Below, in pieces: positions 1,548 through 50,292 of a stretch of DNA of 64,000 nt. The stretch is from the NCBI GenBank assembly GCA_030606285.1, contig JAUWGS010000002.1, positions 125,612 through 189,611 of the forward strand, written 5' to 3'. This stretch comes from Planctomycetales bacterium (lineage in GTDB: Bacteria; 4484-113). Each line of letters begins with the position of its first letter. Within the stretch, counting starts at the first letter, position 1. Position numbers and translations under genes: made by a program. The notes below the pieces were generated by a model. That model ran no database searches. It was not told the origin of the DNA and was given only the letters and a program-made list of their open reading frames with translations.

Positions 1548-1637
1548 ATGCTGAGTGCTGAAATAGCGGAGTTACTGGAGAAGGCTCAAGCATCCAACGA
1601 GACCATTGTCTTCACCAACGGGTGTTTTGAGCTGTAA
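1548..1637 (+). pseudogene. 29-codon relic of the hldC 5' end (MLSAEIAELLEKAQASNETIVFTNGCFEL*), displaced by an inserted cassette
   Basis: Peptide and nucleotide homology to the start of the intact hldC at 2555. 23-nt identical core gtcttcaccaacgggtgttttga at 1608-1630 and 2618-2640. Premature stop after FTNGCFEL. Confidence 0.5.
1608..1630 (+). repeat. left copy of 23-nt identical direct-repeat core flanking the 1-kb cassette (extended imperfect repeat ~1590-1635)
   Basis: Identical to 2618-2640. Flanks diverge at nucleotide level but encode similar peptides. Confidence 0.7.
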
Positions 1638-1767
1638 TCCGCAAGTTCCGCAGCGGCATGTGGCCGAAGGCCTAGGCGGAGGCGGAACCTATCTGAAGAA
1701 GCACTTGAGAATGGGACTTTCGGTGCCAGCGGGTCGAATCTGCATTTGACAAAGGAGGGATCGAAGA

Positions 1768-2535
1768 ATGGAGGGTGCGCAATTGAAAAGACTGGAAAGG
1801 CGCATAGCTTGTCTGGAACGGCAGAGGAATCTGCTGACAGTGCTATTTATGTTATGGGGCATAGGTGTTGGCCTATCGTTCCTGGTCTCCGCTACAACGC
1901 AGGGCGGCAGGCCACAAGCGGTCCAGGCACTGCGCTTTGACGTAGTGGACGAGGACCGAAATGTGTGTGGTGCACTCGGGCCACCCGCTGACGGAAGTCG
2001 AGGAGTAGCGCTGTTTGACGCCAACTATCATGAACGTGCCTTATTTTTTCTTGGTCGAAGTGGAAGCACCGCGCTAGTCTTGAAGGATGTGAATGGCTCT
2101 CCGCGTGTAGCGTTGGGGCTTTCTTGTGGCGGAAGTCCGGCCCTAAGACTCTACGATGAGGATGGAGCGATTCGCTCAAGGCTTGCTATTCGCCCAGACG
2201 GGATTGTGGACCTTGAATTGTCTGACGGAAGCGAGACGGGCTGCTTGTCCTTGGAGCTTTCTCAAGACGGGGTGCCTTGCATGACCATGCGCGGTTCCGA
2301 GGGACACGAGCGCCTAGCACTTGGGGTGCAGGCAAATGAGAGTGCGGGCCTATCGCTGTGGGAGCGCGAAGGCAGAGCTGGCATTCAACTCAACGTGAAT
2401 GCGGACGGTATGTCCCACATTGGCCTGCATGACCACGAAGGCGACCTTCGCGGGATGTTTGCGATGCTCTCAGAATGTATGCCCTGGATTCAGCTATGGG
2501 ACGATGACAAGAACTCGCTCTTCATGGCTCCTTGA
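1768..2535 (+). CDS. membrane-anchored tandem-repeat protein (N-terminal heptad/coiled-coil-like segment, TM helix, then ~20-aa repeats); paralog of 18671-19309
   Basis: GGAGG RBS 9 nt upstream. Coiled-coil-like LKRLERRIACLERQ, TM segment LLTVLFMLWGIGVGLSFLV, then repeats of the form L.LYD.DG..R..L....DG...L.L.D. Shares architecture with ORF 18671. Confidence 0.5.
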   Translation: MEGAQLKRLERRIACLERQRNLLTVLFMLWGIGVGLSFLVSATTQGGRPQAVQALRFDVVDEDRNVCGALGPPADGSRGVALFDANYHERALFFLGRSGSTALVLKDVNGSPRVALGLSCGGSPALRLYDEDGAIRSRLAIRPDGIVDLELSDGSETGCLSLELSQDGVPCMTMRGSEGHERLALGVQANESAGLSLWEREGRAGIQLNVNADGMSHIGLHDHEGDLRGMFAMLSECMPWIQLWDDDKNSLFMAP

Positions 2536-2542
2536 GCCGTGT

Positions 2543-2548
2543 ATAATC
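2543..2548 (+). promoter_or_regulatory. TATAAT -10-like hexamer 6 nt upstream of the hldC ATG (short-leader or leaderless promoter carried on the cassette side)
   Basis: Sequence gccgtgTATAATctgcctgATG. Confidence 0.3.
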
Positions 2549-2554
2549 TGCCTG

Positions 2555-3010
2555 ATGGGGATTTCACCTGAGCTGGAGCGGAAGCTCGCGGAACTGCGCG
2601 CATCCGGCAAGAGCATCGTCTTCACCAACGGGTGTTTTGACCTGTTGCATCCGGGGCACATCCATCAGCTTCGCGAGGCGAGGGCGCAGGGGGATTTCCT
2701 CATCGTGGGCCTGAACTCCGACTCCAGCACGCGGCGGCTGAAGGGCGAGGGCAGACCGATGCTGCCCCAGGACGCGCGCCAAGAACTGCTCGAAGCTATC
2801 CGCTACGTGGACGCCGTAGTCATCTTCGACGAGGACACACCGGAAGCTCTCATCCGCGAAGTGCGCCCCGACGTGCTGGTCAAAGGCGCGGGATATGAAA
2901 TCAAAGACATTGTCGGCGCGGAGTTAGTTAAGGGATACGGCGGCCGCGTGCACCGTGTGCCGATGCTGCCCGGATATTCCACAAGCGAGCTGCTATCAAA
3001 GCTCAAGTAG
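2555..3010 (+). CDS. hldC: D-glycero-beta-D-manno-heptose-1-phosphate adenylyltransferase (RfaE domain II, cytidylyltransferase fold)
   Basis: 151 aa starting MGISPELERKL. HxGH nucleotidyltransferase motif FTNGCFDLLHPGHIH. The longer 2399 ORF start is an upstream artefact. Confidence 0.8.
   Translation: MGISPELERKLAELRASGKSIVFTNGCFDLLHPGHIHQLREARAQGDFLIVGLNSDSSTRRLKGEGRPMLPQDARQELLEAIRYVDAVVIFDEDTPEALIREVRPDVLVKGAGYEIKDIVGAELVKGYGGRVHRVPMLPGYSTSELLSKLK
2618..2640 (+). repeat. right copy of the 23-nt direct-repeat core (inside the hldC 5' coding region)
   Basis: Identical to 1608-1630. Confidence 0.7.
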
Positions 3011-3016
3011 CGGAAT

Positions 3017-3787
3017 ATGGTTCGGCGGACACTCAGCGTGCTCAGCGACCTTATAGCGAGCGTCGCCGGGCTTATGTTTCCCCAGTACTGCATTTTCTGC
3101 GGCGAGCTGGCGGAGACGCTGGTGTGTGATGACTGCGCTGCAAAGCTCACTTCTGTCCAGCATCCCATCTGCCCGCGCTGCGGCAAGCCGCTGAAGACCG
3201 GCGTAGCGCGCAGCGAATGCTTGCACTGCTCCAGCCATCGCTGGTATGTTGATACTGCGCGGGCGCTCTTTGTCTACGAAGGCGAGGGGCGCGATGCTTT
3301 GCACCGCTTCAAGTACGGACGGCGACGCGGGTTGGCACGGTTTTTTGGCAGAGAGCTCTCACGTCAGGCGGGAGACCTGAACCGCCTGGGTGCGCTCTTC
3401 AACTGGGAATTCGGTGAAGAGCCCGAAATGGTGGTTCCAATGCCGCTGCATTGGGGCAAGCGCTTTCTCCGGTGGTTCAACCAGAGCGAGTTGATACTCA
3501 AGTTCTACGCGCCGTCACTTGGCCTGCCGGCGGAGCCTTCAGTTCTGAAAAGAACCAAGTTCACGCATTCGCAGGTAGGGCTGACCGAACCCCAGCGGTT
3601 CGTCAACGTTCGCAAGGCTTTTACCGTTCCTAAACGAGCAGCCGATCGCGTGCGCGGGAAGCGCATCCTGCTGATTGACGATCTGGTGACCACCGGCGCG
3701 ACTCTAAACGCTGCAGCGCGTGCGCTGAAGGACGCTGGCGCGAAGAAGGTCTACGCGCTGTCCTTCTTCACTGCCACGTTGAAGTGA
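3017..3787 (+). CDS. ComF-family protein (double Cys-pair zinc-ribbon-like N-terminus plus phosphoribosyltransferase domain)
   Basis: N-terminal CIFCGE...CDDCAA...CPRCGKP...CLHCS. C-terminal PRTase motif RILLIDDLVTTGATL. Confidence 0.7.
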   Translation: MVRRTLSVLSDLIASVAGLMFPQYCIFCGELAETLVCDDCAAKLTSVQHPICPRCGKPLKTGVARSECLHCSSHRWYVDTARALFVYEGEGRDALHRFKYGRRRGLARFFGRELSRQAGDLNRLGALFNWEFGEEPEMVVPMPLHWGKRFLRWFNQSELILKFYAPSLGLPAEPSVLKRTKFTHSQVGLTEPQRFVNVRKAFTVPKRAADRVRGKRILLIDDLVTTGATLNAAARALKDAGAKKVYALSFFTATLK

Positions 3788-3882
3788 GCAGGGCTGCTTG
3801 CGTCGCTGTCGGTAAAGCCGTTCCGGAGAGTCATGTCCGGCTTGAAAACTCGCAGGACGGCGGGTAGAATAGCTCGCACTGC

Positions 3883-3956
3883 GGGGACGTAGTGTAGAGG
3901 CCTAACATACTTGCCTGTCACGCAAGAGATCGCGAGTTCGAATCTCGTCGTCCCCG
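3883..3956 (+). tRNA. tRNA-Asp (anticodon GTC); CCA not encoded
   Basis: Cloverleaf read by eye: acceptor ggggacg/cgtcccc, anticodon loop ctGTCac, T-arm gcgagttcgaatctcgt, discriminator G. Confidence 0.85.
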
Positions 3957-4190
3957 TTTCGTGGCCTTACCTGTCACATATCAACCGGCTCTCCGCGCTG
4001 GTGCGTTCCCCGTCTGGCTTGAAAGGTGTAGGTTTTCAGCCCAATCCCGGTTCATGACGGGCGATGGTAGAATAACCTCGGATTGGTGAATTTCTGGAAC
4101 ACAAGCTGTGCGGCTTCCCGCGCGAACGCAATGCGAAACCGATATGATTCCCGCGCTTCCCTGCGCGACTTCACGAGGAGCTAGTCGCTT

Positions 4191-5045
4191 ATGACCGAAA
4201 TGAGCGTGACGATCCTGCGCGTGGCGCTGTTCGTGTATCTCGCCTCCACAGCCGCGTATCTGGCCCACGCGACCTTTGCCCGGCGCAATGCAGTGGGAGT
4301 TGTGGCGTACGCAGCCCTGGCCGTTGCATTTGCCCTGCACACAGTCTTTCAGGTTATCCGCGTCGTTGAGTACTGGTCGCAGCACCAGGCGTTCATTCTC
4401 CCAACAGCCTCATTCATTGAGGCGGTAAGCTACTGCGCGTGGATGGTTGCGCTGGTTTACCTCGTGGCGGAACGGTTCATCAAGACACGGCTCTTTGGTG
4501 CGGCAATTGGAGCTGCGATAGTCCTGCTTCTCGGTTATGCGATGCTTCATGGTTCAGAGATGGTTCCCCGTCCGCTGATTCCAGCGCTCAAGAGTCCCTG
4601 GCTCAACATACATGTCACGGCGGTAATCCTCTCCTACGCGGGATTCCTGTTCAGCGCCATCGCAGCCGTCTTCTACCTGCTGCGATTGCGCGGAATACGC
4701 TGGGTGGAGAACCTGTTTGCAAACCTGACGCTGGAGGATCACGACATGCTCACCTACAGGTTCGTCGTTTTCGCCTTTCCCATTCTTACTGTGGGGATCA
4801 TCACGGGAGCCATCTGGGCCGACCAGGCCTGGGGGCGTTTCTGGGGCTGGGATCCCAAGGAAACCTGGAGTCTCATTACGTGGCTCATCTGGGCGGGTTA
4901 CCTTCACACCCGATTGGCGTTTGGCTGGCGGGGCGCCCGAAGCGCCTGGTTCGCGATACTCGGAATCATCTCCGTCTTCATCACGTTTTTCGGTGTAAGT
5001 TTCCTCGCCGCCTATTTCAGTGTGGAATCGCTGCACACCTATTAA
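4191..5045 (+). CDS. ccsA: cytochrome c-type biogenesis protein CcsA/ResC (system II heme handling)
   Basis: Polytopic membrane protein with Trp-rich WGRFWGWDPKETWSLITWLIWAGYLH (WWD-type) motif. Confidence 0.75.
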   Translation: MTEMSVTILRVALFVYLASTAAYLAHATFARRNAVGVVAYAALAVAFALHTVFQVIRVVEYWSQHQAFILPTASFIEAVSYCAWMVALVYLVAERFIKTRLFGAAIGAAIVLLLGYAMLHGSEMVPRPLIPALKSPWLNIHVTAVILSYAGFLFSAIAAVFYLLRLRGIRWVENLFANLTLEDHDMLTYRFVVFAFPILTVGIITGAIWADQAWGRFWGWDPKETWSLITWLIWAGYLHTRLAFGWRGARSAWFAILGIISVFITFFGVSFLAAYFSVESLHTY

Positions 5046-5059
5046 ATTGGATTGAGTGA

Positions 5060-6628: not shown

Positions 6629-6658
6629 GACCGATTCGGCACACTTGCCATCGTCCGT

Positions 6659-8023
6659 TTGAGCTGTGCGCATCGACCAAAGCCAGCTAGAACCAGCAAC
6701 GATTCTGCGCAGCATTCAGCTCTCGAGTCTGCCACTAAACTCGCTGCTGTTTCGAGCCGCCGTTGCGCTCATCTCCTGCAAAGCCTACAATACGTGTCTA
6801 TGCTCACAGGAATGAGCTGGCAGGAGGCCCAGAGTCGGTTGCTGGCGTGGGCCCGTCCGCTGGGCACAGACACAGTGCGTCTGCGCCACGCTTTGTCTCA
6901 TTATTCGGCGGTGGATGTGCTCGCACAGTCTCCGTATCCCGCGCACAACCTGGCCGAAGAACGGGGTTACGCACTGAGTTATGATGCGCTGAAGGCACGC
7001 TGGGACAAGGATGAGCTTCCGCTCTTCAGGTTCGGTGGCAATCTTGGTGGGCGGCACACGTTCAAGCGGCAGGTCTCAAGCGACCAGGCAATGCTGGTCG
7101 ATATTGGCGCTTTTCTTCCAGATGCATACGACCTGGTCGTTCCCGAAGACGAAGTCGAGCGGAGAGACAACGAGGTTGTGGTGAAGGCGCGCTCGGAGAG
7201 ATACAGCGGTGTTATCCGCCGGGGACAGTTCATCCCCGAGCAGAAAGCGCTGTTGTCCAAAGGTCGCCGCATCTCATACGCTGGCTACACGGCGCTCTAC
7301 AGCCAGCCGGTGGAAGAGGTCGACGTGTTGCGCAAGCCGATCATCGGCTCGCTCGTTCTCGGTTCCGGCCTGCACGACCCTCACGCGGTAAAGGTGCCCA
7401 AGGACTCGATTCCCGAGCTTCTCTCCCCCATGATGATGGGCATATGCGCACGCTGGCAGTTCCCATTCATCTCCTTGGGGGTTCAGGAGTCACACAGAAG
7501 TGTCGGCGAGGCAGTGAGCCGGGCATCGGAGCAGGCGGAAATCCTGGTTGTCTCGGGCATCCTTTCCTCGTCTCAATGGCAGGCCTTCACGCGCATGCTC
7601 GGCGAGACGTGGGAGCTGCGGGTTGAAGGTCTCAACCACCCGCTGTGCGGCAGGCTCTGTATGGCTGCGCGGGAAGGGAGGTGGCTCTTCTTCCTACCCT
7701 ATCATCCGCCCATGATACAGGCTCTTCTCACGCTGCTCATATTCCCGTTCGTTACGCGTGTGATGGGAGACGAACACGGATATGTTCCCTTCGTGTCCGC
7801 AAGGTCGCTGGAGACCGTTGAAGTGAAAGATCGGCGGGACGATATCTGGGTTGGACGCGAGGAGTCCACAGGCGAGTTTATGAATGTCGCGCAGGTTAAG
7901 CTAATCTGCCAGATATCCAGTGCGACGCTTACCTCCCTGGCTGAAGGCACCTGCTTCGCTATTCCCCGAGTATCGAGCGATCGCATTGAGGCGCACAGTG
8001 ACCTGGCGATAGTCCGGTACTAG
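6659..8023 (+). CDS. hypothetical protein with MoeA/gephyrin-like layout (divergent; catalytic residues not recognisable)
   Basis: Colinear resemblance to the MoeA N-terminal region (AEERGYALSYDAL vs SAMDGYAV-type segment; PVEEVDVLRKPIIGSLVLGSGL vs MoeA PVIRKVRVALFSTGDEL). True start probably at M48 (nt 6800). Confidence 0.3.
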   Translation: MSCAHRPKPARTSNDSAQHSALESATKLAAVSSRRCAHLLQSLQYVSMLTGMSWQEAQSRLLAWARPLGTDTVRLRHALSHYSAVDVLAQSPYPAHNLAEERGYALSYDALKARWDKDELPLFRFGGNLGGRHTFKRQVSSDQAMLVDIGAFLPDAYDLVVPEDEVERRDNEVVVKARSERYSGVIRRGQFIPEQKALLSKGRRISYAGYTALYSQPVEEVDVLRKPIIGSLVLGSGLHDPHAVKVPKDSIPELLSPMMMGICARWQFPFISLGVQESHRSVGEAVSRASEQAEILVVSGILSSSQWQAFTRMLGETWELRVEGLNHPLCGRLCMAAREGRWLFFLPYHPPMIQALLTLLIFPFVTRVMGDEHGYVPFVSARSLETVEVKDRRDDIWVGREESTGEFMNVAQVKLICQISSATLTSLAEGTCFAIPRVSSDRIEAHSDLAIVRY

Positions 8024-8084
8024 CGCAATCGAACGCTCCTGGCTGGCTTTTCGTCTCCCTTTCGGGTTCGCAACGGCGAATCCG

Positions 8085-18670: not shown

Positions 18671-19309
18671 ATGGAGTCACAAGATATTCGTGCTTTGCAA
18701 TTAAGGCTTGACCGGCTGGAGGCGAGACTCGCCTCGATTTCCCCACCATCCGTCCAGGAAGTATTAAGGGCAAAAACCTTTGAGGTCGTGGATGCCAGCG
18801 GGAAGCTAAGAGCGGGGCTTGGGACACACCCTGACGGCTCGCCGGCGCTGGTGCTCACTGACGCCAGCGGGAAGCCTAGGGCGATGCTTGACACAGACGC
18901 TGACGGCTCGCCGACGCTAGCGCTCTTTGACGCGAGCGGGAAGATAAGAGCGGGGCTTAGCACAGACGCTGACGGCACGCCAGGGCTGGGGTTCCATGAC
19001 GCCAGCGGGGAGGTAAGAGCGGGGCTTGGCATACTCGCTGACGGCTCGACGTGGCTGGAGCTCTATGACGCCAGCGGGGAGCCGAGAGCGGTGCTTGGGA
19101 TACTCCCTGACGGCTCGCCGGGGCTGGATCTCTATGACGCCAGCGGGAAGGCGAGAGCCGTGCTTCGCACACGCGCTGACGGCTCGCCGGGGCTGGGGCT
19201 CTTTGACGCCAGCGAGGAGCCGAGAGCGGGGCTTCGCACACTCGCTGACGGCACGCCGGGGCTGCGGCTCTATGACGCCAGCGGGAACGTGTTGTTCTCC
19301 GCGCCGTAG
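18671..19309 (+). CDS. tandem-repeat protein: N-terminal coiled-coil-like segment plus 8 x 20-aa repeats (DASGK.RA.L.T.ADGSPGL.LY); paralog of 1768-2535
   Basis: GGGAGG RBS. 60-nt in-frame tandem repeats (about 85% nucleotide identity between units). Same family as the cassette ORF at 1768. Confidence 0.55.
   Translation: MESQDIRALQLRLDRLEARLASISPPSVQEVLRAKTFEVVDASGKLRAGLGTHPDGSPALVLTDASGKPRAMLDTDADGSPTLALFDASGKIRAGLSTDADGTPGLGFHDASGEVRAGLGILADGSTWLELYDASGEPRAVLGILPDGSPGLDLYDASGKARAVLRTRADGSPGLGLFDASEEPRAGLRTLADGTPGLRLYDASGNVLFSAP
18791..19290 (+). repeat. about 8 tandem 60-bp coding repeats (unit gacgccagcgggaag..agagcggggctt..gctgacggctcgccggggctgg..ctctat)
   Basis: Period-60 repetition read directly. 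Explains the antisense pseudo-ORFs 18917-19369 and 18957-19475. Confidence 0.8.
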
Positions 19310-22036: not shown

Positions 22037-22522
22037 ATGGCTGAAGAAAAACACGAGCAGATGCTGGAGCTGATTGGCAAGAACGTCGAGGAAATCGGCG
22101 CGGGCGGACAGGGAAAGACGCGCGGCGTGCCGGGCGCGGACGCGAAGGCGTTTGACTGCACCCAGCCCGCAGGCGAAGTAAATATCCGCAGCCAGGAAGA
22201 TGCGTGCGAGCTGCACGCGCCACGCGAGAAGCTGCCCTACGAGATGGTGGCGCTGGACGATAAACTCGGCGTCACCAAGTTCGTGGCCGCCGACGAAGAT
22301 CCGCACCTGCTGGTGGACAACAGCATCTGCCGCGAGTGCCCCGGGCAGTGGTGCCTCTACGTGTGCCCCTCGCAGCGCTACAGCAAGGACGCGGACGGCG
22401 TCATCCACGTGGACAGCGAAGGCTGCTTAGAGTGCGGCACCTGCCGCGTCGCCTGCCTGCCGGGCGGTCTCTACTGGAAGTACCCCCTCGGCGGCTTCGG
22501 CGTGTGCTTCAGATGGGGGTAA
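22037..22522 (+). CDS. fixX: FixX-like ferredoxin-like protein with ~65-aa N-terminal extension
   Basis: C-terminal region CRECPGQWCLYVCP...CLECGTCRVACLP typical of FixX. Start codon immediately follows the fixC stop. Confidence 0.6.
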   Translation: MAEEKHEQMLELIGKNVEEIGAGGQGKTRGVPGADAKAFDCTQPAGEVNIRSQEDACELHAPREKLPYEMVALDDKLGVTKFVAADEDPHLLVDNSICRECPGQWCLYVCPSQRYSKDADGVIHVDSEGCLECGTCRVACLPGGLYWKYPLGGFGVCFRWG

Positions 22523-22586
22523 GCGCAGTTTGAGTGCCAGGATTAGAGAAGCACTCGGGCGTTGTGAACGTTACTAAGGACTACAT

Positions 22587-23540
22587 ATGAAGAAAGCGGA
22601 ATTGATTAGAGATGGGATGATGCCCAACGCCAAAGCTATTTTGGAGAAGACGGAGAATCCTTGGCGCATGCGGTGGGAAAAGGCTGAGTCGCTGCAGAAG
22701 TCTCAGACTGAAACCTTGGCTTCTTTGCTAGCTTTTATTAAAGCGCTGTTTCCAGAAGCTTTGAACGCAGTAAACCGTAGGCTTGGCAATCCACGAGAGT
22801 TTCTCAGCACACTCTCTGAGCTTACGCTGCTCTTCGTCCTTCATCCCGCCAGCTCTGCTCCTAAACTAGGGTTAGCACCATACGAACTTCAATACGACCC
22901 CGGCACAGGGAGCCCTGACATCAAGATCGACCGTCCTAATGAGCCTGCCATCGGGATAGAAGTAACCCGTCCGGGAGTTAAAGATGGTGTAAACCGTCTA
23001 CTTGTTTCCGACGATCCTGACCCGCGATCGGTAGATGAGAAAATTGCATATGAGATGCATAAGCTATTCGCTGAACTTGAGGAAAAGGTGGGGAAATTCG
23101 GTTCTAGTGGCATCAAGGTCATTGCTTTAGATATAACCGACTATATGGGGAGCATATTCCTGTCCGAGTACTCAGCCAGTTATCATATAGAGAGCTATCT
23201 ATATGGCCAGGCTAAGATGACGATAAGCGTACACACGAACGAGGTGTATGCTTGGCGCGATGCTAGCGAGTTGCCAACAGTGAAGGGAGAGGGCGTACAC
23301 TCCTTCTTTGACCTCCATAGGGATGTCGCTGCGGTAATTTACTTCTGGCACGACTATTACAGGGGATCGCCTATCGAGGGATACCGTTTCACAATATGCT
23401 CTAAGCTTGCAGTAAACCTGGCATCCCCTGAAGAACAGAAATTGCCTTGGAATCTGGCGTTTGCCTTATCTAATGTGATGAATGAAGGCGGTCCATTCAC
23501 CGTAGTAGACCTTAGAGGCTGGGGTGTGCGGGTAGTATGA
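22587..23540 (+). CDS. hypothetical protein, paralog B of the ~320-aa unknown family
   Basis: See paralog A. Same conserved blocks in the same order. Confidence 0.5.
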   Translation: MKKAELIRDGMMPNAKAILEKTENPWRMRWEKAESLQKSQTETLASLLAFIKALFPEALNAVNRRLGNPREFLSTLSELTLLFVLHPASSAPKLGLAPYELQYDPGTGSPDIKIDRPNEPAIGIEVTRPGVKDGVNRLLVSDDPDPRSVDEKIAYEMHKLFAELEEKVGKFGSSGIKVIALDITDYMGSIFLSEYSASYHIESYLYGQAKMTISVHTNEVYAWRDASELPTVKGEGVHSFFDLHRDVAAVIYFWHDYYRGSPIEGYRFTICSKLAVNLASPEEQKLPWNLAFALSNVMNEGGPFTVVDLRGWGVRVV

Positions 23541-23651
23541 ACTAGGAAGTGGCTTCGCAAGAACCATCCTGAGCTACTTGGCGATTGACGAGATAGTGTG
23601 GCTGCTGCTTTCGCTTTACCCCTCATCGAAAACCGCTTACAATAGCCAGCG

Positions 23652-23705
23652 ATGCCAGAGCGAACGCGGAGAATCGGCTATGGGATGCTGGTCTATCTTG
23701 AGTAA
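23652..23705 (+). pseudogene. relic of the nadD 5' end ([17 protein letters not shown]), left-hand copy of the repeat flanking the MNT-HEPN cassette
   Basis: First 8 codons identical to the real nadD start at 25038. 21-nt identical core gagcgaacgcggagaatcggc at 23658-23678 and 25044-25064. About 70-nt imperfect direct repeat 23612-23684 vs 24999-25073. Confidence 0.5.
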
Positions 23706-23748
23706 GGTCAGAGGACACATAGGTTGATGCGCTAGCCGGCCTAGCCAA

Positions 23749-23789
23749 TTGTGGTAGTATTAACCATGCTTGTGGTTATATTAACCATG
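23749..23789 (+). promoter_or_regulatory. two tandem 20-bp direct repeats (ttgtggtagtattaaccatg and ttgtggttatattaaccatg), each with a near-palindrome TGGT(A/T)(G/A)-N3-TAACCA; candidate operator for the wHTH-MNT protein
   Basis: AT-rich island in a GC-rich intergenic region, 120 nt upstream of the MNT gene. Confidence 0.4.
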
Positions 23790-23911
23790 ATTATGGAGAA
23801 TTCACGGATGAGATTCGACTATCAGACTATGAGGTGCCAAGTTGGCACCTCAATGATAGCGAAAACCTATAACCCGCACAGCTGTGCGCCGCAGCTGCTG
23901 GCCGCTGTTCT

Positions 23912-24517
23912 ATGAGAAAGAAGAACATAGTCGAATCGCTCTTTCCCCTCATCCGGCGACTCGTGCTCGGTGAACTCGTGCGTTCAAAGGGAGAGAGTAT
24001 TCATATTCACGAGCTGGCGCGACGTGTGGGGAAAGAAGCCAAGAGCGTCTACAACGAACTGAAAAACCTCGAAAACTCAAGTATCGTGACGTCTCAGCGT
24101 GTGGGCAATCAAGTCCACTACTCCCTCAATCCCGCCTGTCCGGTCTATCCCGAACTCCGGATGCTCATTATTAAGACCGTAGGACTGGTGGATGTAATGC
24201 GCGATGCGCTCAAGCCGTTGGCTAAGAAAATCAAGGTGGCCTTTATATATGGAAGCTTCGCGCGCGGCGAGGAGCGCGCAGACAGCGATGTTGACGTGAT
24301 GGTTATCGGCGATGTGTCCTTCGGCGAGGTGGTCAGTGCGCTGGTCCCAGCGCAGGAGCAGCTTCGGCGCGAGGTCAACCCTACGGTTTACCCGCCTGCG
24401 GAGTTCCGGGAGAAGCTGGCGTCGGGGAAGCATTTCCTGACCGCAGTGATGGGTGCGGAGAAGATCTTCCTGGTGGGCGATGAACGAGAGCTTGAGCAAC
24501 TTGGCGGACGGCGTTAG
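23912..24517 (+). CDS. winged-HTH (ArsR-like) plus minimal nucleotidyltransferase (MNT) fusion protein, antitoxin-like
   Basis: NTase motif GSFARGEERADSDVDVMVIGD (GS-x9-13-DxD). N-terminal wHTH. Paralog at 47852. Confidence 0.7.
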   Translation: MRKKNIVESLFPLIRRLVLGELVRSKGESIHIHELARRVGKEAKSVYNELKNLENSSIVTSQRVGNQVHYSLNPACPVYPELRMLIIKTVGLVDVMRDALKPLAKKIKVAFIYGSFARGEERADSDVDVMVIGDVSFGEVVSALVPAQEQLRREVNPTVYPPAEFREKLASGKHFLTAVMGAEKIFLVGDERELEQLGGRR

Positions 24518-24926
24518 GCTCGCCACCCACGAAACCAGCCCGGCGGAAATCGCCGAGCTGCTAGCGGTCGCCGACCGTGACCTTCAAGACTGCATCGACG
24601 GCAGGCTCAGTGCGGACAACCTGCTGAGCATTGCCTACAGCGCAGGCCTTGTCTGCGCGAAGATTGCGCTGGCCGCCGCGGGTTACCGGGCCGGCCACCA
24701 ATCCGCTCATTATTGGACCATTCAGTCCCTCAAGCACACTCTTGGCCTTGACCGGATGCTGGTTGACCGGCTTGATGCCTTTCGCAAGAAGCGCAACGTC
24801 AGCGACTACGAAATGGTGGGAGCCGTGACCGACCGGGAAGCGGACGAGATGCTGGAGCTTGCGAAGTTCCTTCGCAGCAAGGTGGAGGACTGGCTTCGGT
24901 CGCGTTATCCAGGTCTGCTTGCGTAG
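24480..24926 (+). CDS. HEPN / NTase-substrate-binding-like protein (putative toxin partner of MNT)
   Basis: Overlaps the MNT gene 3' end. All-helical. R-x4-basic segment RKKRNVSDYE where the paralog has RKRRHDVIYD. Start codon choice (24480) is uncertain. Confidence 0.55.
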   Translation: MNESLSNLADGVRLATHETSPAEIAELLAVADRDLQDCIDGRLSADNLLSIAYSAGLVCAKIALAAAGYRAGHQSAHYWTIQSLKHTLGLDRMLVDRLDAFRKKRNVSDYEMVGAVTDREADEMLELAKFLRSKVEDWLRSRYPGLLA

Positions 24927-25037
24927 GATTGTGCTTCACTCTTGTGCGCTATACACCAAGCTCTCAACAAGTAACAGCCAGCAGTCGACCCCTGTCTATC
25001 TTTACCCCATTCCTAAAAGCGCATACAATACGCACCG

Positions 25038-25670
25038 ATGCCCGAGCGAACGCGGAGAATCGGCATTATGGGCGGGTCGTTCAATCCCATCCACAACGGG
25101 CACCTCGTCGCCGCCCAGGAAGCGCACTGCAAGTTCAACCTGGAGCGCATCATTTTCGTACCCGCCTACCACAACCCGTACAAGACCGGCGAGAAGTACG
25201 AGCGCGAGCTGGCGTCCACCTTCCACCGTTTCACCATGATCGAGCTGGCAACCTCGTCCAATCCCGATTTCTACGTCTCCAGCTTCGAAATCGACCGCCA
25301 GACTCCAAGCTACGCGCTGGACACTCTCAAGCATTTCCACGAGGAGTTCGGGGAGGGCACCAGCCTCTACTTCATCACCGGGACCGACGCCGTGATGACA
25401 ATGCCCCACTGGCAGGGCGTCGAGGAGTTCCACAAATACTGCGAGGTCATCGCGGTGACGCGACCGAGCTACATTCCGCAGTACGAGGAGTTCCTCGGTA
25501 AAGTCGCGCACCTGGGCCTCAAAGTCTACTTCGTCACGATCCCGGCGCTGGAGATATCGTCAAGCGACGTCCGCGACCGCGTCCGGCGCGGCATGCCTAT
25601 ACGTTATCTGACGCCAACGAGCGTTGCTATCTACATCGAAAAGCACGGGCTGTATCAGGAACAGGAATAG
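25038..25670 (+). CDS. nadD: nicotinate-nucleotide adenylyltransferase
   Basis: Motif [11 protein letters not shown] (HxGH), ~210 aa. TACAAT -10-like hexamer 9 nt upstream of the ATG. Confidence 0.8.
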
Positions 25671-36921: not shown

Positions 36922-36933
36922 TGAGGTTGCCGA

Positions 36934-41601: not shown

Positions 41602-41711
41602 AAGTAAGGTCGTCCGTAAAGAAGATCTGCCCGAAGTGCCGCATCATACGGCGGCGCGGTAGGGTCTATGTCATCTGCGTCAACCCGCGGCATAAGCAGC
41701 GGCAGGGCTGA
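41598..41711 (+). CDS. rpmJ: 50S ribosomal protein L36 (37 aa; below the ORF-track size cutoff)
   Basis: Read from DNA: [41 protein letters not shown] overlap with the infA stop. Confidence 0.8.
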
Positions 41712-41721
41712 AGGAGTAGCA

Positions 41722-42105: not shown

Positions 42106-42120
42106 CGGGGTGACTGTAGT

Positions 42121-42513: not shown

Positions 42514-42537
42514 TCGGCGCAGGAGTCTGTAAAGAAT

Positions 42538-43170: not shown

Positions 43171-43191
43171 TCTTGGGGGAGAGGCGCCACG

Positions 43192-44172: not shown

Positions 44173-44178
44173 CGGAGC

Positions 44179-44553: not shown

Positions 44554-44574
44554 GTCTATTGTGCTGGTTGCACA

Positions 44575-45838: not shown

Positions 45839-45854
45839 GGTCTAACATACGCTT

Positions 45855-46250
45855 ATGGCGGAAGAACGGCAGTTTATATCGGTAGGTCGAAGGAAGACCG
45901 CCACGGCGCGCGTCATCCTGGCGCAGGGCAGTGGCAACTTCCTCATCAACAAACGGCCCTTGACTGATTACTTCAAGACGCCCTACGGGCAGCTTCGCGT
46001 CCAGGAGCCGCTGCGCGTCCTCGGTCTGGAGGACAAGTTCGATGTGAGGGCAAACGTTCGCGGCGGCGGTGTTACCGGTCAGGCGGACGCCGTGTGCCTG
46101 GGCATCGCGCGTTACCTTGAGCACATCAACCCGGACCACCGTCCGGCGCTGAAGAAAGAAGGCCTGCTCTCCCGTGATCCCCGGGCGAAGGAGCGCAAGA
46201 AATACGGTCGGAAGCGCGCGCGCAAACGCTTCCAGTTCAGTAAGCGCTAA
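45855..46250 (+). CDS. rpsI: 30S ribosomal protein S9
   Basis: VGRRKTATARVIL...C-terminal GRKRARKRFQFSKR. Confidence 0.9.
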   Translation: MAEERQFISVGRRKTATARVILAQGSGNFLINKRPLTDYFKTPYGQLRVQEPLRVLGLEDKFDVRANVRGGGVTGQADAVCLGIARYLEHINPDHRPALKKEGLLSRDPRAKERKKYGRKRARKRFQFSKR

Positions 46251-46253
46251 TCT

Positions 46254-47156
46254 ATGCGTATTTCATTTGCACTTGGGCGAAATCTGCTTCTCGGCCTGAT
46301 GGTCGCGGCAGTGGCATTGCTGCCCGTTCCGCTATCGGCAAGTGCAGCACCGTCGCCCGCGTTCCACGAAGAAGCCGACGATGCGGGTTTCGACTGGGCG
46401 CGCATCATCTCAGATTCCGCGCAGCTTCTGGCGGCGCCCAGCTACCGCAGCCGCTCGGTGCGTGAAACCGACCTGTTTGAGCTGTTGCTCGTCGTCGACC
46501 GCGTGAAGTCCTTCTACCTCGTGCGCGACGAGCAGACCCAGTCCTTCCTATTCGTGGACCAATTCGCCGTCGAGTTCGTGGATTACGAGCCGCCGAAGCG
46601 CCAGGGCGCGTACGTGCGCGACGAGAAGATGCGCCTGGGCACGACCCATCCCGACCTGCAGCTTTTCGGCAGCCAGTGGAGCAGTTCAACGCGGGGTTCC
46701 GGCAAGGAAGCGGCCTACGATGGCTATTGTGGCGGCAAGTGGTATCCCACAAACTACAGCGAAAACGCAAGTTACGAGTCAAAACTCGACGGCCACGAGC
46801 TTATCAGCGACGCCCAGGCGTACACCGGGGCTCGCTACGTCTATGGCGGCAATTCCACTAAGGGCATCGACTGCTCCGGCCTGACATCCGCTGCTGCGCG
46901 CAAGCAGGGAGTTAGCCTGCCGCGCCGTGCGTCGTTGCAGGCGCAGAAAGGCAAGATGGTCTCTCGCAGCGAGCTTAAGCCCGGCGACCTGGTATTCTTC
47001 CGCGACTACCGCGATCCCGGCTATCTCTCCCACGTGGGAATCTACCTAACCGGCGGGCGCTTCATCCACGCCAGCAGCAAGCTGCACAAAGTCGGTGTCT
47101 CCTCGCTTTCCGAGAAATACTACTCCGAGCACTTCGCCTTCGGCCGCCGGCTGTAG
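46254..47156 (+). CDS. secreted NlpC/P60 (C40) family cell-wall peptidase
   Basis: Signal peptide. C-terminal domain YVYGGNSTKGIDCSGLTSAA (catalytic Cys) ... HVGIYL (His). Confidence 0.7.
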   Translation: MRISFALGRNLLLGLMVAAVALLPVPLSASAAPSPAFHEEADDAGFDWARIISDSAQLLAAPSYRSRSVRETDLFELLLVVDRVKSFYLVRDEQTQSFLFVDQFAVEFVDYEPPKRQGAYVRDEKMRLGTTHPDLQLFGSQWSSSTRGSGKEAAYDGYCGGKWYPTNYSENASYESKLDGHELISDAQAYTGARYVYGGNSTKGIDCSGLTSAAARKQGVSLPRRASLQAQKGKMVSRSELKPGDLVFFRDYRDPGYLSHVGIYLTGGRFIHASSKLHKVGVSSLSEKYYSEHFAFGRRL

Positions 47157-47175
47157 GGTGGCAGGACAGGAGAAA

Positions 47176-47397
47176 TTGAGGAACTACCTGGCGATTTACG
47201 AACACACGGCGAACAACTGGGCGGCGTTCTCACCGGATGTGCCGGGATGCGTCGCCACCGGTGACACTCGTCAGGAAGCTGAAAAGGCGTTCTCTGAAGC
47301 GCTGGCATTCCATCTTGAAGGGCTGGCGGAAGAAGGCCTTCCTATCCCTGAGCCCCGCTCCGAAGCCGGTATGGTCGCAGTCAGCGTTCCTGAGTGA
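47176..47397 (+). CDS. HicB-family antitoxin-like protein (UPF0150 RNase-H-like fold only, no DNA-binding tail); TTG start after AGGAGA
   Basis: RNYLAIYEHTANNWAAFSPDVPGCVATGDTRQEAEKAFSEALAFHLEGL is the classic HicB N-domain signature. Confidence 0.6.
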   Translation: MRNYLAIYEHTANNWAAFSPDVPGCVATGDTRQEAEKAFSEALAFHLEGLAEEGLPIPEPRSEAGMVAVSVPE

Positions 47398-47426
47398 GGC
47401 GAGACTGTGATGTGACCCTTGGAGGA

Positions 47427-47792
47427 ATGGTGATTGTCGAACTAATCAGGAGACAAGTTAGTCCCGGAACGGTCGTGCCGAAACCTAAGGTTAAGAAGCC
47501 CTGCATAGTGAAGGGATGGGGAAGACGGCGCAACGAACCAGCACTTGTCTACTTCATCCCGAGCCGCAGTCATCCTGACAAACCGTACGAAAAGGGGATA
47601 ACCGTCTCGGAGTTCCGAAAGGCACATCGGCGGCTGATACGTGCCGGGGAGTTTACGAGAGCTTGGTTCAAGCGGCATATGCCCGAATGCGACGCCGAAG
47701 GCAGCTGCAATTTCACGACGATCGGCGGTATCTTCGTGGGACTTGGCATAGCGCGGTATGAGAGCAGAGGGAAGTACGTTAGGGTGGGCTAA
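47427..47792 (+). CDS. hypothetical 121-aa protein downstream of hicB-like gene; possible divergent HicA-like toxin
   Basis: GGAGGA RBS. Segment VYFIPSRSHPDKPYEKGITVSEFRKAHRRLIRAG loosely resembles the HicA core (vP.H...d...G.l..ilkq.G). Assignment is speculative. Confidence 0.3.
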   Translation: MVIVELIRRQVSPGTVVPKPKVKKPCIVKGWGRRRNEPALVYFIPSRSHPDKPYEKGITVSEFRKAHRRLIRAGEFTRAWFKRHMPECDAEGSCNFTTIGGIFVGLGIARYESRGKYVRVG

Positions 47793-47851
47793 TAAGGAGC
47801 CAAGTTCCGCTCTTGCATCCTGCGGGCAAATAGTCTACAATTGGCGGCGAT

Positions 47852-48439
47852 ATGTCGCCAACAGATCTACTGGCTGTCCTCCTACCCCGGGCGCGGCGAG
47901 CGATACTCGCCGAGCTTTTCGCGCGTCCGGACGAGCGGCTGCACCTGCGCGAGCTTGAACGGCGCACCGGTCTTAATGCCAAAGGACTGATGCGCGAGCT
48001 GCATTCGCTCACCGAGGCCGGCATACTCGCAGCGCAGCGCTCCGGTAATCGAGTATACTACCGGGCCAATCCCGATTGCCCGATTTACTCGGAGCTGCGC
48101 GCACTGGTTCTCAAGACCGCAGACCTCGCGGGAGTCTTGAAGCAGGCGCTTGAGCCGCTTGCCGACCGCATCGTACTCGCATACATCTACGGTAGTCACG
48201 CCACAGGCGAAGCCGGTCCAGAAAGCGACATTGATCTTATGCTGGTGGGTGAGCTTGCGCTTTCGGACATCGCATCGCCCATCGCGGAGGCCGAGCGGGC
48301 GCTTTCCCGCGAGGTTAGCCCGACGCTCTACGCGCCCGAAGAATACCGGCGCAAGGCCAGCGACGAAGACGGCTTTGTGGCGAAGGTGCATCGCGGCGCG
48401 AAGATTGTATTGCTGGGAGACGCAGATGAAGCTGTATAA
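47852..48439 (+). CDS. winged-HTH plus minimal nucleotidyltransferase (MNT) protein, paralog of 23912-24517
   Basis: GSHATGEAGPESDIDLMLVGE NTase motif. N-terminal wHTH. Start overlaps a palindrome GGCGAtatgTCGCC. Confidence 0.7.
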   Translation: MSPTDLLAVLLPRARRAILAELFARPDERLHLRELERRTGLNAKGLMRELHSLTEAGILAAQRSGNRVYYRANPDCPIYSELRALVLKTADLAGVLKQALEPLADRIVLAYIYGSHATGEAGPESDIDLMLVGELALSDIASPIAEAERALSREVSPTLYAPEEYRRKASDEDGFVAKVHRGAKIVLLGDADEAV

Positions 48440-48440
48440 G

Positions 48441-48902
48441 ATGGAGGAGCGCGGGTACCTCGCGCGGATCACGCCCAGCAGGGACGATCTGGCGCACCTG
48501 ATAACCGCGATCCAACGCCGGCTGATGGATGCGAAAAACGTAACCGTTACGCGGGAGAACCGGCTCCAGCAGGCGTACCAGGCCGTCTTGCAGGTCGCCA
48601 TCGCCGCGCTTCACGCGAAGGGCTACCGGCTGAAGAGCAAGCCCGCGCATCACGTTATGGCGATAGAGAGCCTGGAGCACACCATCGGCGTTGAGCGTGG
48701 GCTGCGCGACTACTACCAGTCGCTGCGCAAGCGTCGCCACGACGTAATCTACGACGCCATCATCTCGGTGTCGGAACAGGATCTGGAGGAGGCTATAGAG
48801 CGTGCTGAAGGCCTGTTCGCAGCATTCCGCGAATGGCTGGAGAAATATCAGCCGGATCTGGTGGACGCCTCCATCTGGCACCGCCCGGCGGATCCAGGCT
48901 AG
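48441..48902 (+). CDS. HEPN / NTase-substrate-binding-like protein, paralog of 24480-24926
   Basis: ATG directly after the MNT stop (alternative ATG at 48426). R-x4-H segment LRKRRHDVIYD. Confidence 0.55.
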   Translation: MEERGYLARITPSRDDLAHLITAIQRRLMDAKNVTVTRENRLQQAYQAVLQVAIAALHAKGYRLKSKPAHHVMAIESLEHTIGVERGLRDYYQSLRKRRHDVIYDAIISVSEQDLEEAIERAEGLFAAFREWLEKYQPDLVDASIWHRPADPG

Positions 48903-49107
48903 CACGACCGCGCGTTGTCTTATCCTCCTTCCCCGGCTACCGGCTATTTACCCGCCATAGTCACGCGCCTTGCGCGACGACGGCGGGCTGGTCACTGGCT
49001 ACTGGCTACACGATATTTTCTCCCCTCGCGTCAAACCCGCATCTAGCGCGGTATAATACATATGCGGGGCGCTAATAGACGCGCATTCCGCAGTGGAACA
49101 TTTACAT

Positions 49108-49473
49108 GGGGGTGACCTGGTTTCGACCGGAAGAGTTGAAGGCGAGGTCGCGGCAGGTGGCAGCCCACGACGTCCACCTAAATCACGCGTGGGAATGGTT
49201 CAAGCGCCAACTATCAGCTTGCTGCAGCTTAAGCTTTAGGCTGCACCTCGATCGGCGCGTCGCCCGGGGCGCGTCGGCGGGGCAAAGTTCCCGGGCTTTC
49301 CGCCGGAGCTGGCCGGCCCGGTGGGAGACATAGGCCTGCACCTCAGGGGCACGGGTGTTCGCGCGCCGTCCCTTTGGTTAAGAGCGCCTGACGCGAAAGA
49401 GCGTGGACTATTGCCGTAGACGCCGCACCGGAAGCTTCCTGGGACGGGGGTTCGACTCCCCCCACCTCCACCA
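49108..49473 (+). ncRNA. ssrA: tmRNA (ssrA), 366 nt, CCA encoded; predicted tag ending ...ANYQLAAA*
   Basis: 5' GGGGGUGACCUGGUUUCGAC start. Acceptor pairs GGGGGUG / CACCUCC with a G3:U70 wobble (AlaRS identity element). 3' GGACGGGGGUUCGACUCCCCCCACCUCCACCA T-arm and acceptor. In-frame tag gcc aac tat cag ctt gct gca gct taa. Confidence 0.8.
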
Positions 49474-49475
49474 GC

Positions 49476-49498
49476 CTTCGCCAAGGCTTCGGCTGGCA
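49476..49498 (+). repeat. left copy of 23-nt identical direct repeat ccttcgccaaggcttcggctggc, immediately 3' of the tmRNA CCA
   Basis: Identical to 50216-50238. Contains an imperfect hairpin with GCTTCGGC (UUCG-type loop). Confidence 0.7.
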
Positions 49499-49616
49499 AG
49501 CCCGTTCTCGTATAGATGTGCTGAGAGCGTCGAGGATTCATTCTCTTGCGAAGGCTGGTGCCCGACGTAGCTTTAGCGAAGTCGGGCCGGCGTCTCCTGC
49601 AAGATTGGGGGAACGT

Positions 49617-49859
49617 ATGCACTACGTATACTTGCTGAGAAGCACATCTGAACCCAAGCAAACTTACATCGGGATCACAACAGACCTGAAGAAGCGCTTG
49701 GCGAAACACAACAACGGCAGCGGTTACCACACGTCTAAGTACCGCCCGTGGGAGTTCGTTATGTACTGCGGCTTCCGATCCTCTGAGCGGGCTACCGCAT
49801 TTGAGGCTTATCTGAAGACTGGTTCGGGCAGGGCGTTCGCCCGCCGGCATTTCTGGTAG
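49617..49859 (+). CDS. small GIY-YIG nuclease-superfamily protein (YhbQ-like), copy 1
   Basis: HYVYLLRSTSEPKQTYIGITTDLKKRLAKHNNG (GIY...YIG). 80 aa. GGGGGAACG RBS. Confidence 0.7.
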   Translation: MHYVYLLRSTSEPKQTYIGITTDLKKRLAKHNNGSGYHTSKYRPWEFVMYCGFRSSERATAFEAYLKTGSGRAFARRHFW

Positions 49860-49892
49860 CCTTCTCGCTCGCAGCCCTGCGAAGAGAGAAGG
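49860..49892 (+). terminator. imperfect hairpin after GIY-YIG copy 1 (ccttctcgctcgcag-ccc-tgcgaagagagaagg), no T-tract
   Basis: 14-15-bp inverted repeat read by eye. Terminator function not established. Confidence 0.25.
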
Positions 49893-49955
49893 ATGGTGCC
49901 CTCCATAGCCTTGGCGACGGAGGGCTAAATGGCCCATTGAAACTGCGAGCTACAG

Positions 49956-50213
49956 ATGGCAGGCCATATGATGTACTACACTTACGTCCTTGAGAGTGAA
50001 GCAAAGCCCGGGGTGCGTTATATCGGACATACATCCGATCTCAAGCAACGCATTTCTAATCACAACAGCGGAAAAAGTGCTCACACCGCGAAACTGCGTC
50101 CCTGGAAACTCAAGCTCTATATTGCATTTGAAGATCTCGAACATGCCCGGCGTTTCGAGCGCTACTTGAAGAGTGGCTCCGGCCACGCGTTCGCCACTCG
50201 CCACTTCTGGTAG
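49956..50213 (+). CDS. small GIY-YIG nuclease-superfamily protein (YhbQ-like), copy 2 (true start possibly MMYYTYVL, a few codons in)
   Basis: YYTYVLESEAKPGVRYIGHTSDLKQRISNHNSG. About 50% identical to copy 1. Stop abuts the right direct repeat. Confidence 0.7.
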   Translation: MAGHMMYYTYVLESEAKPGVRYIGHTSDLKQRISNHNSGKSAHTAKLRPWKLKLYIAFEDLEHARRFERYLKSGSGHAFATRHFW

Positions 50214-50215
50214 CC

Positions 50216-50238
50216 CCTTCGCCAAGGCTTCGGCTGGC
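50216..50238 (+). repeat. right copy of the 23-nt direct repeat
   Basis: Identical to 49476-49498. Confidence 0.7.
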
Positions 50239-50292
50239 GAGTTCAGCTTCGCTCCTATCGGCGCTTCGCTCACAGTCGCTGCTCAGAACAGC

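Follow-up and report, generated by a model that had tools for sequence, protein, structure and literature searches.

Three core genes of one bacterial genome, hldC, nadD and ssrA, each stand beside a short block of accessory genes set between direct repeats. Were these blocks put in place by one mobile system or by unrelated events? The genes lie in a stretch of 64,000 nt, hereafter the window (contig JAUWGS010000002.1 of a Planctomycetales bacterium), which comes from the metagenome-assembled genome of an uncultured bacterial lineage, and an earlier note on this DNA had proposed that a common site-specific mechanism acts at the three places. Our results are best explained by three hypervariable hot spots that stand beside core genes independently of one another, with two distinct processes at work. 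At hldC and nadD we favor integrase-free recombination, in which a homologous anchor is combined with an illegitimate or short-homology join, and we give this reading a probability of about one half; the flank of ssrA is built differently, from small GIY-YIG units.

Three repeat-flanked blocks and their variation among relatives

The repeat pairs pointed out in the earlier note are indeed there, far above chance: in a scan of the 64 kb they were the only short-range repeats of this type, the number expected by chance is 0, and shuffled sequence gave no matches. At hldC, two 46-nt copies (1590-1635 and 2600-2645) share 87% identity and an exact 23-nt core, GTCTTCACCAACGGGTGTTTTGA, at 1608 and 2618; at nadD, two 65-nt copies (23614-23678 and 25000-25064) share 83% identity and an exact 21-nt core at 23658 and 25044; at ssrA, 25 of 26 nt are identical between 49475-49500 and 50216-50241. 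At hldC and nadD, the similarity between the two copies does not continue significantly past the reported edges, to the left or to the right. The blocks are small (0.7-1.4 kb) and, as the note had said, free of recombinase genes, none of their open reading frames (ORFs) matching a recombinase in Pfam, NCBIfam or PADLOC, the collections with which the window ORFs were searched. Recombinase families were likewise absent from all the ORFs tested in the window, to which all recombinase searching on the source genome was confined, and from the gene calls of related loci. The cargo is of accessory type: a 255-aa repeat protein at hldC, an MNT/HEPN two-gene system at nadD and GIY-YIG proteins at ssrA.

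Among related metagenome genomes and contigs (L numbers below), each of the three sites was met both empty and with other contents, which confirms the presence/absence polymorphism of the insertions expected from the earlier note. The hldA-hldC site is empty in L006, L008-L010 and L029, the last from a sister clade, and the fixX-nadD site is empty in L012, L013 and L032. The occupied sites examined belong to L002-L005, L011, L018-L021, L031 and L035 and make up about nine configurations, a small sample in which no integrase was found. No motif is common to the three cores, which are unrelated to one another. Because of this, and because the repeat is missing at most occupied sites, no integrase was found and the anatomy at ssrA is different, a single site-specific system for the three loci is unsupported.

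An imported start at hldC

The hldC locus reads as follows.

577 to 1545, plus strand: hldA, PfkB-type heptose kinase (Pfam PF00294, E 2e-40), directly before hldC in relatives
1548 to 1637, plus strand: stranded ancestral hldC start, MLSAEIAELLEKAQASNETIVFTNGCFEL*, identified by alignment to the native starts of empty sites, with the exact core at 1608-1630
1638 to 2554, plus strand: inserted DNA, with the ORF of the 255-aa repeat protein (1768-2535) and a TATAAT box (2542-2547)
2555 to 3010, plus strand: live hldC, 151 aa (PF01467, E 2e-20), with the second core copy at 2618-2640

The close HldC homologues (83-89% identity) fall into two N-terminal classes. In the native class, found in L006, L008-L010 and the sister-clade contig L029, the protein has 150 aa and begins with MLSA..., the hldC ATG lies 2 nt after the hldA stop codon, and the site is empty, the 1638-2554 insert being missing. 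The imported class, found in the window, L002-L005 and L028, is a 151-aa form with different first 20 codons and a TATAAT box 7 nt before its ATG; in the window this box is within the inserted DNA, and codons 1-21 of the live gene are of the imported allele type. The relic has its ATG (1548) 2 nt past the hldA stop codon, and its alignment to the native starts of the empty-site genomes holds down to GGCGGATAGAGATGCTGAGTGCTGA, whereas it differs from the live start in length and in most of the first 20 codons, and its similarity to the live gene breaks off sharply at about 1635. Since the relic matches the native class, the hldA-hldC junction included, it is the ancestral start; the insert brought the live start along with its promoter. 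The direction of replacement is thus shown, and it does not agree with the earlier note, where the upstream copy was taken for a decayed duplicate of the live start. The whole structure recurs, 100% identical, in a second assembly made from the source run, a Logan contig of SRR14876847.

The 23-nt core is identical, or differs by at most 1 nt, in all relatives, occupied or empty, and codes for VFTNGCFD. It is therefore conserved coding sequence, such that identity between the two copies is expected and does not speak for an att site. Nor does occupation define a clade, because the nearest relative of the window is the empty L008, and the occupied L002 is more distant. In L002 another cargo occupies the site, namely an 832-aa ORF of secreted type on the opposite strand; neither relic nor repeat is present there.

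The 255-aa cargo ORF had no family match, and a homologue search with it returned no matches, not even its own sequence. Elsewhere in the window, a 212-aa protein (18671-19309) with five 69-nt (23-aa) tandem repeats, DASGKxRAxLxxxADGSPxLxL, is a paralogue of this cargo (1768-2535) at 34% identity; a family match is lacking for either.

Mosaic cargo upstream of nadD

At nadD the window has the following order.

22523 to 23555, plus strand: cassette A, a 317-aa ORF (22587-23540) of low GC content at third codon positions (GC3), no family match
23614 to 23678, plus strand: relic nadD promoter and first 9 codons, with CTTTACC (-35), TACAAT at 23638-23643, ATG at 23652 and the core at 23658-23678
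23679 to 24999, plus strand: cassette T, an MNT-type nucleotidyltransferase (23912-24517) and its HEPN partner (24480-24926)
25000 to 25670, plus strand: live nadD with its own promoter (PF01467, E 6e-21), CTTTACC at 25000, TACAAT at 25024-25029 and ATG at 25038

Cassette T matches Pfam PF01909 and PF18765 and, as a nucleotidyltransferase with a helix-turn-helix (HTH) followed by an adjacent, overlapping HEPN-like partner, has the make-up of the PADLOC candidate system PDC-M05 (PDC-M05A, E 6e-69; PDC-M05B, E 7e-46). Upstream of the MNT/HEPN operon there are two tandem 21-nt repeats, TTGTGGTNNTATTAACCATGA, in the window (23749-23790), L011 (1560-1601) and L018 (3844-3885), kept in these three genomes even where the protein-coding DNA is only 76% identical; the HTH-bearing MNT protein probably uses them as its operator.

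The content between fixX and nadD differs from one relative to the next, with seven cargo configurations in eight occupied lineages, and two empty lineages. In the list below, A stands for the 317-aa ORF and M for a 328-aa membrane protein, while T, T' and T'' denote MNT/HEPN pairs that have diverged from one another.

L012, L013 and L032: empty
L011: T
window: A, relic, T
L035: A, T'
L019 and L021: Mrr-like, T' (in L021 only the HEPN gene of T' is visible before nadD)
L018: M, T''
L020: T-fragment, M
L031: ORF6N pair

Cassette A is missing in L011, L012 and L032, and is found again, 91% identical, in L035 beside a different toxin-antitoxin pair; cassette T is 93% identical to that of L011 from 23747 onward. 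The modules recombine freely, their order included, as seen from M-T'' in L018 against T-fragment-M in L020.

On the side of the gene, homology between genomes of unlike cargo begins at about 25000, at the CTTTACC of the -35 box, which is also the left edge of the window repeat. In fact, the nadD promoter (CTTTACC-N17-TACAAT-N8-ATG) is conserved regardless of what lies upstream. The clean repeat is exclusive to the window among the occupied genomes examined: relic and repeat are absent from L018, L019, L020, L031 and L035. In L011, a decayed TACAAT-ATG relic stands to the left of T at the ancestral distance from fixX; the window segment comprising A and the relic (22522-23746) is missing there, and the relic segment itself (23614-23678) is missing from both L011 and L035. 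Immediately right of the relic, the window (GGCTATGGGATGCTGGT) matches the L011 flank of T (GGCTATGAGATGGCTGTT), and the relic is joined to T at a GGC shared with nadD, a microhomology.

The earlier note had read the upstream nadD copy, too, as a decayed duplicate of the gene start. It does copy the promoter and 9 codons, but 10 of the 11 mismatches to the live gene lie in the promoter part (P=0.024), and this clustering suggests a hybrid origin or gene conversion and not uniform decay. The -10 hexamer that had been described before both starts is there in both nadD copies (TACAAT, 8 nt upstream of the ATG), whereas at hldC it belongs to the live copy only. Consensus-like -10 boxes 7-10 nt before the ATG occur at the live hldC (2542-2557), at nadD (25024-25040) and at a second MNT gene of the window (47836-47854); boxes so close to the ATG suggest that leaderless or near-leaderless mRNAs may be made in this lineage.

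Some further observations concern the same gene. Both relic targets, hldC (2555-3010) and nadD (25038-25670), belong to one Pfam family, PF01467 (cytidylyltransferase-like), and in either gene no more than a few codons separate the end of the repeat from the N-terminal GxFxxxHxGH motif; given the handful of such genes per genome, this coincidence is unlikely by chance. The motif GACTGACGACTGA(A/G)AGC stands after the stop codon of the HEPN gene in L018 (4960-5000) and of an 81-aa ORF in L031 (3795-3815); these two cargo genes are unrelated, and in both genomes the motif lies a short way upstream of the nadD promoter. In L021 (448-678), nadD extends to codon 63 only and is followed by NADH dehydrogenase-like genes on the other strand, such that this contig is probably chimeric.

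Proposed route of insertion at hldC and nadD

The route that we infer for these two sites starts from another strain as donor, in which the cargo would already lie upstream of the same core gene; the incoming DNA would therefore carry its own promoter and first codons. On one side, a homologous crossover would take place in or beyond the conserved 5' coding stretch, and on the other side an illegitimate join, or one based on very short homology, would close the exchange. Where this join fell inside the resident gene start, the latter would be stranded as a relic and the imported start would drive the gene. Where both crossovers fell in the flanking core genes, ordinary allelic replacement without a relic would result, and this may account for most of the turnover in the relatives.

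A precedent is found in the orphan arrays at type VI secretion system (T6SS) effector-immunity, Rhs and contact-dependent inhibition (CDI) loci, for which an integrase-free homology-facilitated illegitimate recombination (HFIR) that strands gene ends was proposed (PMC5361080). As in those arrays, integrase-free modules stand here beside a conserved anchor gene together with stranded orphan pieces, and the modules are mosaic among close strains and mostly exchanged by relic-less homologous replacement (PMC5361080). Unlike there, it is a housekeeping gene that has lost its place here, by its promoter and 5' end, and not a toxin gene by its 3' end; the cargo consists of toxin-antitoxin or defence-type genes and genes of unknown function, and the imported piece must supply a promoter. 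The descriptive features of HFIR, namely a conserved anchor gene, a stranded relic of the resident gene and no recombinase, are all seen at hldC and nadD.

Several points weigh against this route. HFIR is a rare event. Neither a donor sequence nor a recombination intermediate was seen, and the sliding identity of hldC against L008, L002 and L006 showed no discontinuity, such that no donor tract was detectable to the right of the core against L008, at the low resolution that 86% background identity allows. The sharp edge after an exact stretch of 21-23 nt also fits site-specific recombination or the Campbell-type integration of a circle. The identical 9 codons of nadD beside a promoter part that is 26% divergent require an extra crossover or gene conversion, and the membership of both relic targets in PF01467 is not explained by a non-specific mechanism. 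Finally, the recombinase search covered just 64 kb of the source genome.

That last point bears on the first alternative, namely the model of the earlier note, by which the hldC and nadD cassettes would be miniature site-specific islands, either decayed integrative elements or others mobilizable in cis or trans with attL and attR retained (cis-mobilizable elements, CIMEs), served by a tyrosine or serine recombinase encoded elsewhere, with the cores as crossover sites and the gene start supplied by the element. The order in the window (native flank, core, cargo, imported promoter and start, core, gene) is that of an element restoring a 5' end, and the similarity ends sharply at one edge of the core. 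The imported hldC start class occurs with different cargo in three lineages that do not form a clade, and the decayed promoter-plus-ATG relic of L011 stands to the left of the same toxin-antitoxin cassette as in the window. Integrase-less CIMEs, and rare integration at the 5' ends of protein genes, are documented (PMC5704250); the short integrase-less cargo block resembles them, and the 5'-end targets, known but rare (PMC5704250), have their parallel here. The feature that defines a CIME is seen at hldC and nadD of the window and not at ssrA. However, an integrase or a fragment of one was found in none of the about nine occupied configurations of the two sites, no related element with an integrase was seen there in any relative, and the cassettes have less than 250 nt of non-coding DNA, which leaves no room for integrase remnants. 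The repeat is missing in L002, L018, L019, L020, L031 and L035, the cores are mutually unrelated and without dyad symmetry, and that of hldC is simply the most conserved coding stretch. The cassettes are also shuffled, M coming before T in L018 and after a T-fragment in L020. We consider such islands unlikely.

Somewhat less likely still is a RecA-dependent cycle, in which the cassette would loop out between its repeats and the circle, carrying one copy, would re-integrate by a single crossover in the conserved 5' stretch, regenerating the repeats. Exact cores of 21-23 nt are near the minimal length for RecA-dependent exchange, and they lie in sequence conserved throughout the lineage, so that a landing pad would be available in any relative; the sharp one-sided edge and the missing recombinase would be accounted for as well. 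Exchange on about 23 bp is, however, very inefficient, the origin of the first repeat is left unexplained, the repeat is absent at most occupied sites, and the circle junction was not observed. That the repeats are artefacts, or simple tandem duplications that later diverged, is very improbable: the source is metagenome-assembled and the nadD relic is known from a single assembly, but the hldC structure is identical in a second one, the flanks show no relation to the cargo, cassettes A and T were each found again in independent samples, and the live hldC start departs from its relic in length and most of the first 20 codons while the relatives match the relic.

Other known kinds of element were compared with hldC and nadD and rejected. 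For an integron cassette array, the cassettes have promoters of their own and show no inverted repeats or attC-like structures at their ends, and no integrase was found. For an insertion sequence (IS), a miniature inverted-repeat transposable element (MITE) or a transposon, the terminal inverted repeats and target-site duplication are lacking. Xer/dif-type modules were discarded upon direct reading of the cores, which have no dyad symmetry.

If integrase-free recombination is indeed the route, the two sites would be a compact example of how defence and toxin-antitoxin genes are shuffled without integrase into hot spots beside essential genes, with the unusual outcome of a housekeeping gene running on an imported promoter and imported first codons; it would also bear on how integrase-less defence hot spots get filled. 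The hot spots themselves are of a familiar kind. As in flexible islets, defence hot spots and tycheposons, the site is fixed by core, tRNA or tmRNA genes, small cargo is stacked there, and remnants of old insertions persist (10.1101/2020.12.28.424599). What is new is the displacement of the 5' end and the imported promoter on housekeeping genes. The tycheposon islands of Prochlorococcus have site-specific integrases and partial tRNA repeats (10.1101/2020.12.28.424599); unlike in them, no such integrase or series of partial-gene repeats was found here.

Small GIY-YIG units downstream of ssrA

The flank of the transfer-messenger RNA (tmRNA) gene has another anatomy.

49108 to 49473, plus strand: ssrA (tmRNA), intact (ARAGORN; Rfam RF00023, 117 bits)
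49475 to 49500, plus strand: repeat copy 1, after the tmRNA CCA; reverse-oriented GIY-unit motif AGCCTTGGCGAAGG plus a part like motif B
49482 to 49864, plus strand: GIY-YIG unit 1; structured leader and ORF 49617-49859 (80 aa; PF01541, E 6e-17)
49865 to 50215, plus strand: GIY-YIG unit 2; leader 49865-49972 and ORF from 49956 or 49968 to 50213 (PF01541, E 4e-15)
50216 to 50241, plus strand: repeat copy 2, directly after the GIY-YIG 2 stop; its last 5 nt are backbone common to L023

According to the earlier note the cassette had replaced the 3' end of ssrA. This is not the case, for the repeat begins 2 nt after the tmRNA CCA, outside the gene, and copies none of ssrA. A copy of the ssrA 3' end hidden in the region coding for the GIY-YIG C-terminus was considered and rejected, as a suggestive MAFFT alignment corresponded to non-significant similarity (P ~0.12-0.16). 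The 26-mer, composed of the reversed motif AGCCTTGGCGAAGG and a second motif, is one of four related motif copies in an 800-nt stretch, two per orientation, and would be part of the conserved flanking motifs of tiny GIY-YIG units lying directly 3' of tRNA or tmRNA genes.

Comparison with L022 and L023 shows unit 1 to be cleanly inserted between CCTTCGC and TCGCAG. It is flanked by CCTTCGC and CCTTCTCGC, and the units of L022 are flanked by TCGCTCGCAG. In L023 the tmRNA gene is followed by TCCTTCGC, TCGCAG and a single unit of 117 nt. This ORF-less unit of L022 and L023 consists of the GIY-YIG 2 leader and first few codons fused to the sequence past the GIY-YIG 1 stop, the window leader (49865-49972) being 94-95% identical to it over 108-109 nt; no GIY-YIG ORF was found at the ssrA flank of either contig. 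L022 has, at 7176-7653, 4.1 perfectly identical tandem copies of the 117-nt unit directly after the tmRNA gene, where L023 has one; so perfect an identity could reflect a very recent amplification or an assembly effect.

The two leaders of the window share one layout, with a stem, a 7-bp hairpin with the loop RTAGCYTTRGCGAM, and the motif AGCTACGGATGGCAGGCC. Both fold alike, into a stem closed by CCTTC/GAAGG and then the 7-bp hairpin with its conserved 14-nt loop, and two compensatory changes in the stem separate them (GCCCGAC/GTCGGGC against GCCCTCC/GGAGGGC). Fold z-scores are -3.8 for unit 1 and -3.3 to -4.4 for the leaders. In addition, a 23-nt imperfect inverted repeat (78%; 49898-49920 and 50216-50238) brackets the GIY-YIG 2 ORF. 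A search of Rfam over the flank, at the gathering or a permissive threshold, returned the tmRNA alone and no family for the leader.

The proteins are 80-85 aa long and end in a C-terminus like ...YLKSGSGxAFAxRHFW. Both units encode the GIY-YIG catalytic domain found in homing endonucleases (PF01541) and nothing beyond this domain. The subfamily is large, with 10,810 clusters at E<=0.001 and 2,385 at E<=1e-10 in a profile search. Among the best 150 matches, 62 have at least 15 called residues before the domain; these 62 extensions come from unrelated metagenomes, and 11 of them read SLGEGG, SFSEGG or ALAKEG, which is motif A translated in two frames, 8 of the 62 read YGWQA or AGKPA, which is motif B, and 8 of the 62 include peptides of the sort that result when tRNA or tmRNA 3' ends are translated. 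The extension of P0337, for instance, is GRGFESPRLHH, to be set beside GRGFDSPHLHQ, the read-through of the window's own tmRNA. Indirect as it is, this evidence suggests that the leader is common to the whole family and that its members are repeatedly placed just 3' of tRNA-like genes.

How are these units to be understood? The plainer answer, to which we give clearly less than an even chance, is that the units themselves are immobile: the two GIY-YIG genes would be accessory genes of an ordinary sort, preceded by a conserved regulatory leader, and local duplication, deletion and unequal crossing-over would have produced both the repeats and the 117-nt array of L022. A catalytic domain of 80-85 aa without a DNA-binding domain agrees with this, and so do the two full copies only that the window shows, at 53% identity, and the 100% identical 4.1 copies of L022, which fit recent unequal crossing-over or an assembly effect. 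The family was not found on plasmids or phages: tblastn against plasmids and phages gave nothing useful, a viral collection held no match to the hairpin motif, and the scan for GIY-YIG relatives there produced one irrelevant giant-virus match. On the other hand, local events do not readily give the clean insertion of unit 1 between CCTTCGC and TCGCAG, nor the N-terminal extensions from unrelated metagenomes with tRNA/tmRNA ends (8 of 62) and leader-motif peptides (11 and 8 of 62).

More doubtful is the idea that the ~80-aa GIY-YIG genes, with their conserved structured leader, form an undescribed class of miniature mobile units that home to the immediate 3' flank of tRNA and tmRNA genes and give rise to derivatives of about 117 nt which lack the ORF and multiply in tandem. 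What the earlier note saw as the ssrA repeat would then be the terminal motif of such a unit. Any mobility of the units is something that we infer; on that footing, the nuclease at ssrA is more likely the agent of mobility than cargo. The literature searched held no relevant description of a multicopy GIY-YIG element with hairpins.

The closest parallels differ in one way or another. The T-even phage Seg proteins are free-standing GIY-YIG homing endonucleases, larger, with DNA-binding domains, and phage-borne. As with their genes, a GIY-YIG gene here stands cleanly between conserved flanks, is present or absent among relatives and requires no repeats; unlike them, the proteins have 80-85 aa and no DNA-binding domain, and the family was not found on phages in the searches made. 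We know of no conserved structured leader or ORF-less tandem derivative described for the Seg genes. In the ssrA genomic islands (ssrA-GIs) of Dehalococcoides, the repeat, of about 20 bp, duplicates the 3' end of ssrA, and beside attL there is an integrase of the serine or tyrosine type (PMC3146451). The variable region directly downstream of a single-copy tmRNA gene and the tandem build-up of units are common to both cases (PMC3146451), but here the repeat is outside ssrA, the units measure about 0.12-0.4 kb, and the sole enzyme is an 80-aa GIY-YIG domain. An integrase-mediated island targeting ssrA or tRNA was accordingly rejected, the repeat being no copy of the RNA 3' end and the two GIY-YIG genes being the only ORFs of the block, with no integrase. 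No transposase is present at the ssrA units either.

The GIY-YIG units could be the part of these findings that is new. Should they prove self-mobile, they would represent nuclease-based elements of very small size and of a new kind, accompanied by derivatives that are not autonomous; the lead rests on a large subfamily (~2,400 clusters at E<=1e-10), an apparently conserved leader outside Rfam and an apparent recurrence just downstream of tRNA or tmRNA genes.

Other variable regions of the window

A fourth hot spot lies just upstream of ssrA.

47163 to 48994, plus strand: region between the NlpC/P60 gene and ssrA, with a HicB-like ORF (47170-47397), a 132-aa ORF and a second MNT/HEPN pair (47852-48902)

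This site is empty in L023, and in L022 it contains the MNT/HEPN pair alone, to which the window adds the HicB-like and 132-aa ORFs. The HicB-like ORF matches HicB_lk_antitox; the second MNT/HEPN pair is 41% identical to cassette T and matches PF05168. No repeats are present at this site, where the insertions begin right after the NlpC stop codon (TAGGGTGGC).

The segment 17694-20640, upstream of fixC, is probably a further variable region. Its ORFs measure 205, 212, 333 and 73 aa, their GC3 falls as low as 0.59, and the segment is not common to L018, L031, L032 and L012, which have other genes there. Lastly, 55188-58098 and 58459-61412 form a tandem duplicated gene cluster of about 3.27 kb with 74-85% identity, each made up of a Fur-like regulator of ~155 aa, an ORF of ~630 aa and a small ORF.

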